9,532 nt of DNA from IMG/VR virus record IMGVR_UViG_2671180986_000016. The stretch is one strand, 5' to 3'. This document shows positions 1,886 through 6,533 of the stretch, piece by piece. The position numbers and the translations under genes were made by a program. The notes under the pieces were generated by a model, which worked only from the letters and a program-made list of their open reading frames with translations, was not told the origin of the DNA and ran no database searches. The first letter of the stretch is position 1. Every line of letters begins with the position of its first letter. This stretch comes from a virus. Lineage: Duplodnaviria; Heunggongvirae; Uroviricota; Caudoviricetes.

Positions 1886-1905
1886 GGCGACCTGGGGCGG
1901 TCGCC
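1886..1905. terminator. GC-rich hairpin GGCGACC-TGGGGC-GGTCGCC flanked by A-tract (left) and T-run (right); probable bidirectional intrinsic terminator between convergent alpA and the leftward transcript
   Basis: Perfect 7-bp stem (1886-1892 / 1899-1905) with 6-nt loop. On the minus strand the hairpin is followed by TTTGTTTTAT (reverse complement of 1876-1885), a good U-tract. On the plus strand it is followed by AGTTTGG, a weaker one. Confidence 0.4.
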
Positions 1906-1969: not shown

Positions 1970-2146
1970 TCAGTCTGTTTCAGTGCGTTGCCATAACTGC
2001 GAAGCTCTCTCCTTTGATGAGTATTCTTTAAGGTACTTCTCAAGGGCAAAAGAACACGGCGCGAATCGTTCTGATTCATGCTCTTTCTTTCTGCGTCGTC
2101 TTTTTCGTGCAGGTGATGTTTTTTTGGTTGATTCTTCGTTGGTCAT
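1970..2146 (-). CDS. Candidate small basic ORF (58 aa, MTNEESTKKTSPARKRRRRKKEHESERFAPCSFALEKYLKEYSSKERASQLWQRTETD); speculative
   Basis: Hand translation of the minus strand: ATG at 2146, stop at 1970-1972. It is in the same frame as the upstream RHH-like gene (TAA at 2204-2206) and 19 codons after it. It ends about 65 bp upstream of the hairpin at 1886-1905. Below the ORF-track length cutoff. Weak SD (AGGCG). Lys/Arg richness could simply reflect a T-rich intergenic stretch. Confidence 0.2.
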   Translation of the reverse strand: MTNEESTKKTSPARKRRRRKKEHESERFAPCSFALEKYLKEYSSKERASQLWQRTETD

Positions 2147-2203: not shown

Positions 2204-2509
2204 TTATTCTGATTCTTTGGCCTTGCGGCGCTGGAGTTCTTCGCGTGCAACGGTGATAAGCTGCCCGATTTCCTCCGCTGCCTTGATGCCGATTTGTTCG
2301 ACATTAGCTAGGGCATCCAGTGAAGACACAAGGGGATTTTCTCCACTTCCTTCTGCCTGGCGCCTGGCGATCTCACCGCGTACAGCCGTAACTATAAAAT
2401 TCGCTTTAGTTTCCCCTGGCTGTAGGGATGCCTCAATGCCACTCACTACTTCATGTGGAAATCTGGCATTCAGTTGCTGTGACTTATTGTTAACAGAACT
2501 CCTGGACAT
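2204..2509 (-). CDS. Small regulator, probable ribbon-helix-helix (CopG/Arc-like) DNA-binding protein, 101 aa; candidate repressor of the rightward operon
   Basis: Minus-strand ORF with preferred start ATG at 2509 (reverse complement of 2507-2509), preceded by a strong SD GGAGGTG (reverse complement of 2514-2520) at 6-nt spacing. The longer track ORF (start 2656) would begin upstream of this SD. The N-terminus KSQQLNARFPHEVVSGIEASL fits the RHH beta-strand plus helix pattern (x-R-F-P-x-E). Divergent from the rightward operon across an operator-containing region. Confidence 0.55.
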   Translation of the reverse strand: MSRSSVNNKSQQLNARFPHEVVSGIEASLQPGETKANFIVTAVRGEIARRQAEGSGENPLVSSLDALANVEQIGIKAAEEIGQLITVAREELQRRKAKESE

Positions 2510-2540
2510 GTTTGCACCTCCCATTAATAACGGGATGCAG

Positions 2541-2607
2541 TGTAATACAAAAGTGAATACCAAAAAAGACTTGAAATGGTATTCACCTAAATGTAATGTG
2601 AATACCA
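2541..2607. promoter_or_regulatory. Divergent promoter/operator region: three copies of the 10-bp site GTGAATACCA (two direct, one inverted) overlapping a candidate rightward sigma70 promoter
   Basis: GTGAATACCA at 2553-2562 and 2598-2607; reverse complement TGGTATTCAC at 2577-2586. Centre-to-centre spacing is 24 and 21 bp. Both direct copies are preceded by TGTAAT (2541-2546, 2592-2597). Candidate promoter: -35 TTGAAA (2571-2576), 17-bp spacer, -10 TAATGT (2594-2599). The middle site fills the spacer and the third site overlaps -10/+1. Confidence 0.5.
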
Positions 2608-2709
2608 CAAGTGCTGATACATGCAATTCAGCAATTGAAACGACGAAGCCCCGCAAGTGTCGTTACCACTCGCAGGGCTTCTAACCAACAACGTAAACGA
2701 GGAGCCGTT

Positions 2710-2907
2710 ATGGTTGCCGTAAATCATATACCACACCTTGTACACACACAAACGGCCTTTGTGTGGCGTTTTCTGGCCCTGAGTGCCGGAGAATCTCAAA
2801 TCATCCACGTAACCGCCTGGACGGAACGCGAAGCGCGTAACCGTTGCCCGTCAGGTTGTGTTGCTGTATTCGCCGCCCGTATTCGTCAGGAGGTGTGCCA
2901 TGCCTGA
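2710..2907 (+). CDS. Small protein, 65 aa, first gene of the rightward operon; possibly Icd-like (host cell-division inhibitor) family, function uncertain
   Basis: ATG at 2710 preceded by SD GAGGAG (2699-2704) at 5-nt spacing; stop TGA at 2905-2907 overlaps the next start (ATG 2900) by 8 nt. MVAVNHIPHLVHTQTAFVWRFLALSAGESQIIHVTAWTEREARNRCPSGCVAVFAARIRQEVCHA. The family guess rests on recalled resemblance (W/F-rich N-terminus, EREARxxL, FAxR...QEV) and typical position just upstream of the primase in P4-like islands. Confidence 0.5.
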   Translation: MVAVNHIPHLVHTQTAFVWRFLALSAGESQIIHVTAWTEREARNRCPSGCVAVFAARIRQEVCHA

Positions 2908-3140
2908 CATGACCAATTACCAGTACCTGATTAATCCGCATTTTAACTGTGAGCATGATATTGCTAAAAAGGTTTATTCCGCTGCGGATGGGGCTACTGA
3001 CAATATATCAATGGCTGTTGCGTCAATTGGTAGCCTGATGTGGCATGCGTCAGAAAATGAGGAATATGACGAAAAGGCTATGCGCATTGACATGGGTAAT
3101 ATTGGCTTGTTACTGGCAATGCTTGGGCAGTTTGATATTT
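2900..3140 (+). CDS. Unknown protein, N-terminal 80 aa visible, 3' end hidden in masked block 3141-4461
   Basis: ATG at 2900 (alternative ATG 2909) with strong SD AGGAGG (2888-2893) at 6-nt spacing. MPDMTNYQYLINPHFNCEHDIAKKVYSAADGATDNISMAVASIGSLMWHASENEEYDEKAMRIDMGNIGLLLAMLGQFDI... Its reading frame differs from that of the primase/helicase segment after the mask, so it is probably a separate gene unless the mask hides a frameshift. Confidence 0.45.
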
Positions 3141-5876
3141 NNNNNNNNNNNNNNNNNNNNNNNNNNNNNNNNNNNNNNNNNNNNNNNNNNNNNNNNNNNN
3201 NNNNNNNNNNNNNNNNNNNNNNNNNNNNNNNNNNNNNNNNNNNNNNNNNNNNNNNNNNNNNNNNNNNNNNNNNNNNNNNNNNNNNNNNNNNNNNNNNNNN
3301 NNNNNNNNNNNNNNNNNNNNNNNNNNNNNNNNNNNNNNNNNNNNNNNNNNNNNNNNNNNNNNNNNNNNNNNNNNNNNNNNNNNNNNNNNNNNNNNNNNNN
3401 NNNNNNNNNNNNNNNNNNNNNNNNNNNNNNNNNNNNNNNNNNNNNNNNNNNNNNNNNNNNNNNNNNNNNNNNNNNNNNNNNNNNNNNNNNNNNNNNNNNN
3501 NNNNNNNNNNNNNNNNNNNNNNNNNNNNNNNNNNNNNNNNNNNNNNNNNNNNNNNNNNNNNNNNNNNNNNNNNNNNNNNNNNNNNNNNNNNNNNNNNNNN
3601 NNNNNNNNNNNNNNNNNNNNNNNNNNNNNNNNNNNNNNNNNNNNNNNNNNNNNNNNNNNNNNNNNNNNNNNNNNNNNNNNNNNNNNNNNNNNNNNNNNNN
3701 NNNNNNNNNNNNNNNNNNNNNNNNNNNNNNNNNNNNNNNNNNNNNNNNNNNNNNNNNNNNNNNNNNNNNNNNNNNNNNNNNNNNNNNNNNNNNNNNNNNN
3801 NNNNNNNNNNNNNNNNNNNNNNNNNNNNNNNNNNNNNNNNNNNNNNNNNNNNNNNNNNNNNNNNNNNNNNNNNNNNNNNNNNNNNNNNNNNNNNNNNNNN
3901 NNNNNNNNNNNNNNNNNNNNNNNNNNNNNNNNNNNNNNNNNNNNNNNNNNNNNNNNNNNNNNNNNNNNNNNNNNNNNNNNNNNNNNNNNNNNNNNNNNNN
4001 NNNNNNNNNNNNNNNNNNNNNNNNNNNNNNNNNNNNNNNNNNNNNNNNNNNNNNNNNNNNNNNNNNNNNNNNNNNNNNNNNNNNNNNNNNNNNNNNNNNN
4101 NNNNNNNNNNNNNNNNNNNNNNNNNNNNNNNNNNNNNNNNNNNNNNNNNNNNNNNNNNNNNNNNNNNNNNNNNNNNNNNNNNNNNNNNNNNNNNNNNNNN
4201 NNNNNNNNNNNNNNNNNNNNNNNNNNNNNNNNNNNNNNNNNNNNNNNNNNNNNNNNNNNNNNNNNNNNNNNNNNNNNNNNNNNNNNNNNNNNNNNNNNNN
4301 NNNNNNNNNNNNNNNNNNNNNNNNNNNNNNNNNNNNNNNNNNNNNNNNNNNNNNNNNNNNNNNNNNNNNNNNNNNNNNNNNNNNNNNNNNNNNNNNNNNN
4401 NNNNNNNNNNNNNNNNNNNNNNNNNNNNNNNNNNNNNNNNNNNNNNNNNNNNNNNNNNNNNGCTATTCGCAGAACGCCATTAAATCGGCGGTCGATACCA
4501 TGAAGTTAAGTTTGCCTGTAATGGGGAATACAGCCCGTAACCTGATTGGATTCAGTAACGGGGTATTTGATACCAGAACAGGTAATTTTCGGGAGCATAA
4601 CAAAAACGACTGGTTGTTAATTGCCAGTGAATTACCTTTCAGCCCACCAGCAGAGGGGGAAACGCTGGCAACACATGCGCCGAATTTCTGGAAGTGGTTA
4701 CGCCGTTCGGTGGCTGAGAATGACCGCAAGGCGGATCGCGTACTGACTGTATTATTCATGGTGCTGGCGAACCGGTACGACTGGCAGTTATTCATTGAGG
4801 TAACAGGTCCAGGGGGAAGTGGTAAAAGCGTGATGGCGGAGATTTGCACCATGCTGGCGGGTAAGGCCAACACAGTATCGGCAAGCATGAAGGCGCTGGA
4901 AGATGCAAGGGAACGCGCGTTAGTGGTTGGCTTTTCGCTGATTATCATGCCGGATATGACCCGCTACGCTGGTGATGGGGCAGGGATTAAGGCCATTACA
5001 GGCGGTGACAAGGTGGCAATTGACCCGAAACACAAAGCCCCCTACTCAACGCGTATTCCGGCAGTAGTGCTGGCGGTTAACAATAACGCCATGTCATTCA
5101 GTGACCGCAGCGGGGGGATCTCACGTCGTCGGGTGATATTCAATTTTTCGGAAGTTGTACCGGAGAACGAACGCGACCCCATGCTGGCAGAAAAAATAGA
5201 AGGAGAGCTGGCGGTTGTGATTCGCCACCTGCTTACTCGTTTTTCTGACCAGGACGAAGCTAAACGCCTGCTGTATGAGCAGCAGAAATCAGAAGAAGCT
5301 CTGGTGATAAAACGCGAGGGCGATTCGCTGGTGGACTTCTGCGGCTATCTCATGTCGTCGGTAATGTGTGATGGTCTGTTAGTGGGTAATGCCGAAATTA
5401 TTCCGTTCAGTCCGCGCAGGTATCTTTATCACGCCTATCTGGCATATATGAGGGCACACGGATTCGGTAAACCTGTAACACTGACGCGCTTCGGTAAAGA
5501 TATGCCGGGGGCAATGGCGGAATATGGCAGGGAGTATATGAAACGGAAAACGAAGCACGGTTTGCGTTCAAANNNNNNNNNNNNNNNNNNNNNNNNNNNN
5601 NNNNNNNNNNNNNNNNNNNNNNNNNNNNNNNNNNNNNNNNNNNNNNNNNNNNNNNNNNNNNNNNNNNNNNNNNNNNNNNNNNNNNNNNNNNNNNNNNNNN
5701 NNNNNNNNNNNNNNNNNNNNNNNNNNNNNNNNNNNNNNNNNNNNNNNNNNNNNNNNNNNNNNNNNNNNNNNNNNNNNNNNNNNNNNNNNNNNNNNNNNNN
5801 NNNNNNNNNNNNNNNNNNNNNNNNNNNNNNNNNNNNNNNNNNNNNNNNNNNNNNNNNNNNNNNNNNNNNNNGGTGA
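3141..5876 (+). CDS. P4 alpha-type primase / SF3 (D5-like) replicative helicase; both ends lie in masked sequence, visible part is 4462-5572 (C-terminal helicase region)
   Basis: Visible 370 aa carry Walker A GPGGSGKS, Walker B-like hydrophobic strand ending in D (LIIMPD), and the D5_N / P4-family primase C-terminal domain pattern (NLIGFSNGVFDTRTG..., VVLAVNNNAMSF). The start is somewhere in mask 3141-4461 and the true stop is probably inside mask 5573-5871; the coordinates given are only the envelope of the open frame (first visible in-frame stop TGA 5874-5876). Confidence 0.75.
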   Translation, partial: XXXXXXXXXXXXXXXXXXXXXXXXXXXXXXXXXXXXXXXXXXXXXXXXXXXXXXXXXXXXXXXXXXXXXXXXXXXXXXXXXXXXXXXXXXXXXXXXXXXXXXXXXXXXXXXXXXXXXXXXXXXXXXXXXXXXXXXXXXXXXXXXXXXXXXXXXXXXXXXXXXXXXXXXXXXXXXXXXXXXXXXXXXXXXXXXXXXXXXXXXXXXXXXXXXXXXXXXXXXXXXXXXXXXXXXXXXXXXXXXXXXXXXXXXXXXXXXXXXXXXXXXXXXXXXXXXXXXXXXXXXXXXXXXXXXXXXXXXXXXXXXXXXXXXXXXXXXXXXXXXXXXXXXXXXXXXXXXXXXXXXXXXXXXXXXXXXXXXXXXXXXXXXXXXXXXXXXXXXXXXXXXXXXXXXXXXXXXXXXXXXXXXXXXXXXXXXXXXXXXXXXXXXXXXXXXXXXXXXXXXYSQNAIKSAVDTMKLSLPVMGNTARNLIGFSNGVFDTRTGNFREHNKNDWLLIASELPFSPPAEGETLATHAPNFWKWLRRSVAENDRKADRVLTVLFMVLANRYDWQLFIEVTGPGGSGKSVMAEICTMLAGKANTVSASMKALEDARERALVVGFSLIIMPDMTRYAGDGAGIKAITGGDKVAIDPKHKAPYSTRIPAVVLAVNNNAMSFSDRSGGISRRRVIFNFSEVVPENERDPMLAEKIEGELAVVIRHLLTRFSDQDEAKRLLYEQQKSEEALVIKREGDSLVDFCGYLMSSVMCDGLLVGNAEIIPFSPRRYLYHAYLAYMRAHGFGKPVTLTRFGKDMPGAMAEYGREYMKRKTKHGLRSXXXXXXXXXXXXXXXXXXXXXXXXXXXXXXXXXXXXXXXXXXXXXXXXXXXXXXXXXXXXXXXXXXXXXXXXXXXXXXXXXXXXXXXXXXXXXXXXXXXXX

Positions 5877-6253: not shown

Positions 6254-6533
6254 CAGCACAGATAGCGGCTTACGGGCGGCTGGTGGCTGACCCGCAGTTA
6301 AAGACCACCAGCAAGGGTACGCAAATGACGATGGCGAGTATGGCGGTTCCCCTGCCGTGCAGCCAGGCAGATGACGGAACGGCGACGATATGGTTATCCG
6401 TCCTGGCGTTTGGCAGACAGGCTGACGCACTGGCAAAGCACCAGAAAGGCGAGCTGGTGAGCGTGGCGGGTAACATGCAGGTAAGCCAGTGGACAGGCCA
6501 GAACGGAGAAACGCGGCAGGGCTGGCAGGTTAT
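6250..6533 (+). CDS. Single-stranded DNA-binding protein-like OB-fold protein; 3' end in masked block 6534-7327
   Basis: ATG at 6250 with SD GGAGA (6236-6240). The visible 95 aa align by eye to the bacterial SSB OB fold: TIWLSVLAFGRQADALAKHQKGELVSVAGNMQVSQWTGQNGETRQGWQV compares with E. coli SSB [52 protein letters not shown]. Confidence 0.7.

Follow-up and report, generated by a model that had tools for sequence, protein, structure and literature searches.

Which protein reads the short repeats that lie between two divergent genes of a phage satellite, and to what effect? The DNA examined is a 9532-base stretch of the IMG/VR virus record IMGVR_UViG_2671180986_000016 (the window), which is a satellite of the capsid-forming phage-inducible chromosomal island (cf-PICI) type, and the repeats stand in its 200-nt intergenic region at 2510-2709. 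To the left lies ylcI (2204-2509, minus strand), which encodes a 101-amino-acid (aa) protein of the YlcI/YnfO family; 2510, where an earlier note on this DNA had let the region start, is the first intergenic base. To the right, an operon begins with an icd-like gene. The earlier note had taken the repeats for an operator within the divergent promoter and had offered two possible binders, the divergent ribbon-helix-helix (RHH)-like protein and the regulator AlpA. Comparison with related islands makes it likely that the island encodes the reader of these repeats itself: they would be the operator at which its YlcI/YnfO-family protein, a putative Arc/Mnt-like repressor, shuts the rightward promoter.

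Repeats and the putative promoters they overlap

The exact 10-mer GTGAATACCA occurs three times in the window, at 2553-2562 (plus strand), 2577-2586 (minus strand) and 2598-2607 (plus strand). The three copies, one of them inverted, lie within 55 bp as had been noted earlier, with centre-to-centre spacings of 24 and 21 bp for the 10-mers and of 23 and 22 bp for the 9-nt core. Such a set is improbable by chance: in 200,000 shuffles of 2510-2709, some 10-mer reached three or more non-overlapping copies, both strands counted, once with mononucleotide and three times with first-order Markov shuffling. The rest of the 9532-base window holds no further exact copy. With up to two mismatches there are seven copies in the whole window against 5.4 expected, and the four elsewhere, with two mismatches, are at chance level. 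The intergenic region contains the following elements.

2531-2539, plus strand: degenerate site 1, CGGGATGCA, which matches TGGTATTCA at 6 of 9 positions and lies over the start of the leftward transcript, predicted at about 2532
2539-2544, minus strand: candidate -10 of the leftward (ylcI) promoter, TACACT, not called by the promoter scan
2553-2562, plus strand: site 2, GTGAATACCA, 8 bp 5′ of the rightward -35 and in the -35/spacer zone of the leftward promoter
2571-2576, plus strand: putative rightward -35, TTGAAA
2577-2586, minus strand: site 3, TGGTATTCAC when read on the plus strand, which directly adjoins the -35 on its 3′ side and fills the spacer
2594-2599, plus strand: putative rightward -10, TAATGT, 17 nt past the -35
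2598-2607, plus strand: site 4, GTGAATACCA, which overlaps the -10 by 2 nt and covers the transcript start, predicted at about 2606
2622-2630, plus strand: possible weak fifth site, TGCAATTCA, a 7/9 match centred 23 bp past site 4

The geometry TTGAAA-17-TAATGT, with sites on the spacer and on the -10/+1, is thus as first described. As expected for a repressor operator, the repeats lie over core promoter elements, site 3 in the spacer and site 4 on the -10.

For the comparison of islands, 2150-2950 was used as blastn query against 5426 complete Escherichia coli genomes. The ylcI/icd module is common: it gave a partial match in 2014 of them and a match over at least 80% of the query in 265. We fetched 11 loci from E. 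coli, five from Photorhabdus, Yersinia, Serratia, Pectobacterium and a contig labelled Pseudomonas, and five more by protein type. A scan of species genomes with protein alignment gave five loci; diversity came from the E. coli genomes, IMG/VR and exact-protein look-ups. Twenty islands with ylcI were compared, which represent 13 types of the N-terminal motif of YlcI (the head), seven named genera and metagenomes.

TTGnnn is found at the position of the -35, at the same distance from ylcI, in all 20 islands, and TAnnnT at the position of the -10 in 18 of them. The putative rightward promoter is thus supported by its conserved position across islands, and not by its match to the consensus. Islands with a long form of the protein and clear repeats have four sites of alternating orientation, 22-23 bp apart and centred at about -36, -13, +10 and +32 from the first base of the -35; loci L010 and L015 fit this layout less cleanly. 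A good site at the site-1 position is present in 15 of the 20 islands, among them the one from Yersinia, whose head is that of the window, and the degenerate site 1 is common to the other two copies of the window type (the window and L001). An extra site comparable to the fifth of the window lies at +54 in L002 and L014. By this comparison, the window's three exact sites occupy positions 2-4 of a larger array, which is well preserved at these positions. The ancestral layout would comprise four sites, that is, two bipartite operators each spanning a -10, and the window would have lost the site nearest ylcI.

On the leftward side, TACACT aligns with a minus-strand TATACT kept in most other islands, while the leftward -35 is poor (a T-run). 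Between sites 1 and 2, most loci have a conserved block, CAGTATACACAAAA. The block that bears the -10, CAGTATACAC, likely represents the -10 of the ylcI promoter, spanned by the left bipartite operator.

The protein that probably reads the sites

The sequence of the repeat differs between islands, and it tracks the hypervariable residues 1-32 of the YlcI protein. These residues are at least 97% identical within an operator type and at most 72% identical between types. The heads and their sites are as follows.

QQLNARF: site TGGTATTCAC
QLTTVRV: site TGTGTTTCA
KQISIRI: site TGTGATTCA
QSLTARI: site TGTAAGAC
KKLEARV: site TGGCTGACA
QMTTLRV: site TGTATATCAC
QALAARV: sites TGTGCAACA and TGTTTTCAC

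The same head is accompanied by the same sites across genera (E. coli and Photorhabdus, E. coli and Yersinia), with diverged spacers between the sites. Comparing Serratia with Pectobacterium, sites 3 and 4 have both changed from T to A at the same position. Among 14 IMG/VR contigs carrying the exact inverted repeat, a gene of the QQLNARF type adjoins it in 13 of the 13 readable cases. Across the 20 islands and 13 head types, the position of the sites is thus kept while their sequence co-varies with the putative DNA-reading region, a pattern expected of a repressor and its operator.

Were residues 12, 14 and 16 the DNA-reading ones, a distant protein that shares them would be expected to go with the same sites. 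The protein P0099, encoded on a metagenome scaffold, has the head QQINARV and is 57% identical overall, and it is accompanied by TGTTATTCA, two copies of TGCGATTCAC and an exact GTGAATACCA at the standard positions. The prediction that a shared Gln-Asn-Arg head goes with the same site family therefore held. The Yersinia QQLNARF protein (79% identical) is accompanied by a left operator with an exact TGGTATTCA and GAATACCA and by a right operator of CGATTCAC/GTGAATCG. Taken together, these sequences give TG[GC][TG]ATTCAC as the site family for the Gln-Asn-Arg head, in which two central positions are tolerant.

The 101-aa protein belongs to the family described by NCBIfam NF041551, YlcI_YnfO_N, a model of the N-terminal 42-residue domain (E = 1.3e-16, 60.3 bits against a cutoff of 30, residues 9-50). 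Its homologues are named YlcI/YnfO family protein in RefSeq, and it also matches PHROG 6522 and 949, both of function not known. The hypervariable residues 1-32 would comprise an arm, a beta-strand and helix A. Residues 33-53 (putative helix B) are conserved; a Gly/Ser linker (54-58) connects them to the long C-terminal helix (59-100), and the protein is near-invariant from residue 33 on. Column entropy is highest at residues 12-15, which fits the place of a DNA-reading head; Asn7, Ser10, Arg16 and Pro18 are invariant or nearly so. The AlphaFold2 model from a 42-sequence alignment (mean predicted local distance difference test score 75) has residues 1-15 disordered and helices at 19-28, 35-53 and 59-100, with the Gly/Ser linker.

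Profile alignments by hhalign gave weak matches to P22 Arc (P = 0.0058, probability 6%), to P22 Mnt (P = 0.067) and to an Arc-like open reading frame (ORF) of locus L011 described below (P = 0.0064 over residues 8-52). All three share one register, which sets QQLNARFPHEVV against PQFNLRWPREVL. In the Arc register, YlcI residues 12, 14 and 16 stand opposite Arc residues 9, 11 and 13; Gln9, Asn11 and Arg13 are the base-contacting residues of Arc. A Pfam search with the 101-aa protein found nothing at E <= 0.01 and PF07704 alone at E <= 10, a family that matches 33 of 42 members below threshold (best E = 0.0011). A short-form member, that of L013, matches PHROG 'Arc-like' families only with E = 0.09-0.34, and phmmer and profile searches of PDB sequences gave chance-level matches alone (DNA polymerase beta, Hef). 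An RHH fold of the YlcI N-terminus is suggested by these alignments.

Three islands (L008, L009 and L013) encode short forms of 59-64 aa that lack the long C-terminal helix. Here the sites are centred at -35, +10 and +45 or +35; site 2 is missing, and the third site is displaced or direct (all sites of L013 are direct). The different site layout of these short forms, a small sample of three, hints that dimers are joined through the C-terminal helix, which would thereby set the 22-23-bp spacing. As a separate observation, L013 has two genes of the YlcI/YnfO family (809-988 and 1550-1729 of that locus, both on the minus strand).

From these data we infer the following mode of action. The N-terminal ~50 residues of YlcI would form an Arc/Mnt-like RHH dimer, with Gln12, Asn14 and Arg16 on the beta-strand reading one ~10-bp site. 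Through the flexible linker and the long C-terminal helix, dimers would be joined on sites that follow one another every 22-23 bp, close to two helical turns. The rightward -10 would be bracketed by sites 3 and 4, with site 2 just upstream of the -35, and occupancy of the sites would exclude RNA polymerase, so that the operon of icd-like, primase, single-stranded DNA-binding protein (SSB) and capsid genes stays silent in the quiescent satellite. In relatives, sites 1 and 2 would bracket the ylcI -10 likewise and allow autoregulation; in the window, with its decayed site 1, autorepression would be weak or absent. Repression might be relieved by AlpA-driven transcription from upstream that reads antisense through ylcI. 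The terminator at 1905-1886, which lies between alpA and ylcI, is strong in the leftward direction only.

Several points weigh against a YlcI repressor. TTGAAA-17-TAATGT agrees with the consensus at only 8 of the 12 bases and did not turn up in a consensus promoter scan. The relation of head to site is not one-to-one: islands with SLTARI and SVTARI heads have only one exact site in common, and the right operator of the Yersinia QQLNARF island has TGCGATTCAC in place of TGGTATTCAC. In published work, AlpA is required for induction of PICIs and cf-PICIs and activates its own promoter, and no repressor is named (PMC6092414; cf-PICI preprint). Finally, the codons for the YlcI N-terminus adjoin the operator, and the coupling could partly be plain co-inheritance. 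This concern is reduced, but not removed, by the footprints shared across genera and by the prediction that held.

The earlier note had left open whether the switch is controlled by a repressor or an activator. YlcI might bind the sites but mainly activate, or act as a bidirectional switch; it would then boost transcription of its own gene, an effect that P22 Mnt has indirectly, or recruit polymerase rightward. Both promoters are off consensus, and the leftward -35 is poor; site 2, at roughly -45 to -55 relative to the rightward promoter, is where an activator classically binds; and with back-to-back promoters the repression of either could benefit its partner, as in the annotation of P22 Pant and Pmnt. 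Rightward activation is hard to square, however, with sites 3 and 4, which fill the spacer and the -10/start in long-form islands. Since the sites lie on the rightward core promoter, repression is the part of the earlier proposal that we retain, and we regard activation as the main role of YlcI as unlikely. Leftward activation is compatible with the YlcI repressor and is not a true rival to it.

Alternatively, another factor (a helper-phage, host or other island protein) might read the sites, which would then merely travel with the adjacent 5′ end of ylcI. Adjacency alone predicts that the N-terminal codons and the intergenic DNA are inherited together. Within this co-inherited block, however, the sites are kept across genera while the spacers have diverged, the protein variation is concentrated at residues 12-15, and the site family recurs beside a 57%-identical protein that shares the putative reading residues. 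The operator region is present once per genome in 32 complete E. coli genomes of this operator type, with no second copy that would hint at a phage regulon. Among the island's own products, AlpA, the Icd-like protein and the product of a 58-aa ORF downstream of ylcI were rejected as binders, each being uncoupled from the site type: the type of Icd-like protein varies independently of the operator type, and the 58-aa ORF is kept across operator types, with homologues in L014 and L011, whose operators are of other types. CRP was likewise discarded as a candidate. Some site types hold TGTGA...TCACA, but the half-sites are ~20 bp apart instead of 6 and the motif varies between islands. A foreign reader of the sites is thus very improbable.

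AlpA was the second possible binder of the earlier note. Its gene is 0.7 kb upstream of the repeats, and AlpA is needed for induction and activates its own promoter (PMC6092414); by this reading, it would bind the repeats and activate the rightward operon. The site sequence does not follow the AlpA variant, however: L003, L012 and L013 have an identical AlpA beside three unrelated repeats, and within one repeat type the AlpA proteins are 25-42% identical (mean 37%). Moreover, the spacer, the -10 and the transcript start are the positions of a repressor, and the published target of AlpA is the alpA promoter, not the repeat region (PMC6092414). We consider AlpA sites highly unlikely here. Replication-origin iterons or integrase/excisionase arm-type sites, in which short repeats about two helical turns apart are also found, can practically be dismissed, as the repeats are fixed relative to the conserved -35/-10 in most islands and lie 1.3 kb from the end of the integrase gene and not at the island boundary, and PICI origins have been placed downstream of the primase gene (PMC10111431).

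Leader, neighbouring genes and the wider island

Among the genes typical of a cf-PICI, the window has those for integrase, AlpA, SSB, a ClpP-like prohead protease and a major capsid protein, and the gene order agrees with the organization described in the cf-PICI preprint. Portal and terminase genes were not seen in the readable window; they may lie beyond it or within masked stretches. Masking, which translates as X, affects ~3140-4450, 5560-5870, 6530-7330, 7930-8270 and 8360-8860 and covers the N-terminus of the primase together with portions of SSB and of the head genes. The replication gene bears a primase annotation in the homologous locus L001. The features around the switch are listed below.

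1-1239: integrase gene
1649-1858: alpA, matching Pfam Phage_AlpA (E = 1.7e-16), ~0.7 kb upstream of the repeats
1886-1905, minus strand: intrinsic terminator of the ylcI-orf58 transcript from the terminator scan, GGCGACC-loop-GGTCGCC followed by TTTGTTTTAT
1970-2146, minus strand: conserved, basic 58-aa ORF downstream of ylcI with a KRRRRK motif and then FAPCSFALEKYLKE, matching PHROG 21027 (function not known; E = 7.8e-13)
2204-2509, minus strand: ylcI, the proposed repressor gene, with a GGAGG ribosome-binding site 7 nt before the ATG
2645-2681, plus strand: GC-rich, conserved hairpin in the leader of the rightward operon, with the near-invariant TCTAACCA (2680-2687) behind it
2710-2907, plus strand: icd-like gene, 65 aa, first of the rightward operon, matching NCBIfam NF033153 (E = 5.2e-18)

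The 58-aa ORF is probably co-transcribed with ylcI. Downstream of the icd-like gene, the rightward genes are small ORFs, a primase/helicase (partly masked), SSB, the ClpP-like prohead protease and the major capsid protein. The Icd-like protein also matches PHROG 1743 and 6196, 'transcriptional repressor' (E = 1e-23 and 7e-18). Within its coding sequence lies a terminator-like hairpin (2745-2765, plus strand), CACACAAA-loop-TTTGTGTG and then GCGTTTTCTG.

Across 15 sequence variants of the leader hairpin, 90% of the cells were paired compared with 33-48% in slid controls, and four pairs showed compensatory changes. A single-stranded TCTAACCA follows in 14 of the 15 variants. The hairpin recombines independently of the operator type, and it is present also in L011, an island of the EcCIEDL933 type without ylcI. 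It is therefore part of the icd-like leader and not of the YlcI switch. We rejected it as a classic terminator, as it has no U-tract. With an E-value limit of 1, no part of the window matched an Rfam family, the C4 and isrK covariance models included, and the hairpin is thus not a recognized C4, CI or isrK immunity RNA. In L003, L012 and L013, a second copy of the hairpin is located upstream, at ~1108-1152 on the plus strand, between alpA and the main switch. The doubled YlcI/YnfO genes and the doubled hairpin in some islands suggest tandem or remnant switch modules.

A plus-strand ORF of 271 aa (1869-2684) was rejected as a real gene. It runs antisense to two conserved minus-strand genes and crosses the length-variable intergenic region. 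The frame is probably spurious, but RefSeq has its equivalent as a gene in O157:H7 genomes.

L011 (O157:H7 strain 3384, EcCIEDL933 type) carries an unannotated 62-aa ORF with a TTG start at 2556-2741 of the minus strand, in the same slot and orientation as the ylcI gene that this island lacks. The ORF matches PHROG 228, 'Arc-like repressor' (E = 5.7e-7), and Pfam HicB (E = 4.8e-4), and it is antisense to a 247-aa plus-strand 'hypothetical protein' of RefSeq. Two copies of AGGTGGTCACCT flank the region beside a TTGACA. The prototype cf-PICI type may hence also have a divergent RHH regulator that annotation has missed.

Known switches and the meaning of the proposed YlcI operator

Which known switch does this locus resemble? 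In logic, and probably in fold, its closest analogue would be immI of phage P22, where Pmnt and Pant are overlapping divergent promoters. There too, a small leftward regulator has its operators on core promoter elements, and Arc residues 5-27 and Mnt residues 8-20 align with the YlcI profile, with N-x-R-x-P-x-E-V as the common motif. Mnt also consists of an RHH domain followed by a C-terminal helical oligomerization domain. The sequence similarity is nevertheless below significance, and homology is not established by sequence. In P22, each protein has a single operator of 21-23 bp, the half-sites of which are separated by about one turn, whereas four or five sites 22-23 bp apart are found here, and the P22 switch controls an antirepressor gene instead of a satellite replication and packaging operon.

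The lambdoid immunity regions (CI/Cro, OR/OL) likewise have several related sites across divergent promoters, reading head and operators change together, and the flanking modules recombine. The lambda repressor, however, is a helix-turn-helix protein unlike YlcI, and there is no sign here of a Cro-like antagonist or of a RecA-cleavable domain. With P1 immI (c4 RNA-icd-ant) and P4 immunity (CI RNA), the locus shares an icd-like first controlled gene and a conserved structured leader. In P1 and P4, immunity rests on antisense RNA, and not on DNA repeats co-varying with a protein, and the window had no Rfam match. Such immunity RNAs have been reported in some Gram-negative PICIs (PMC10111431).

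Among satellites, Stl or Rpr of the Staphylococcus aureus pathogenicity islands and Gram-positive PICIs is also a divergent regulator beside the integrase side that acts on the promoter for replication and packaging and, as YlcI would, holds the satellite quiescent (PMC6092414). Stl-type repressors are described as larger and as inactivated by binding a helper-phage protein; for the YlcI family neither an inducer nor a role in induction is known. Induction of Gram-negative PICIs is reported to run through AlpA, and the prototype cf-PICI, of the EcCIEDL933 type, is without ylcI. The repressor in Gram-negative PICIs was termed 'unclear' in 2018, and in a cf-PICI preprint of 2025 the gene that follows alpA is still listed as variable, with no known function. 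In the literature searched, which included few subscription journals and in which absence is no proof, we found no paper on a role for YlcI/YnfO or on such an 'off switch' in Gram-negative phage satellites.

The mechanism proposed here is a classic repressor-operator switch; what is new is the family and the elements concerned. A much wider reading, which we regard as possible but rather doubtful as a whole, is that YlcI/YnfO proteins and unrelated Arc-like proteins in the same slot fill the vacant role of master repressor in many Gram-negative PICIs and cf-PICIs. Heads and four-site operators would then define 'immunity groups' (the 111 cluster representatives have at least 18 head motifs), and repression would be lifted at the near-invariant C-terminal domain, by helper phages or by AlpA-driven antisense transcription across ylcI. 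If true, induction of Gram-negative satellites would be a two-key system, requiring AlpA and derepression and not AlpA alone. Apart from this wider reading, the comparative evidence provides the uncharacterized YlcI/YnfO family with a concrete candidate function, together with its DNA sites and likely reading residues, and matched pairs of protein and operator could serve as orthogonal repressors.

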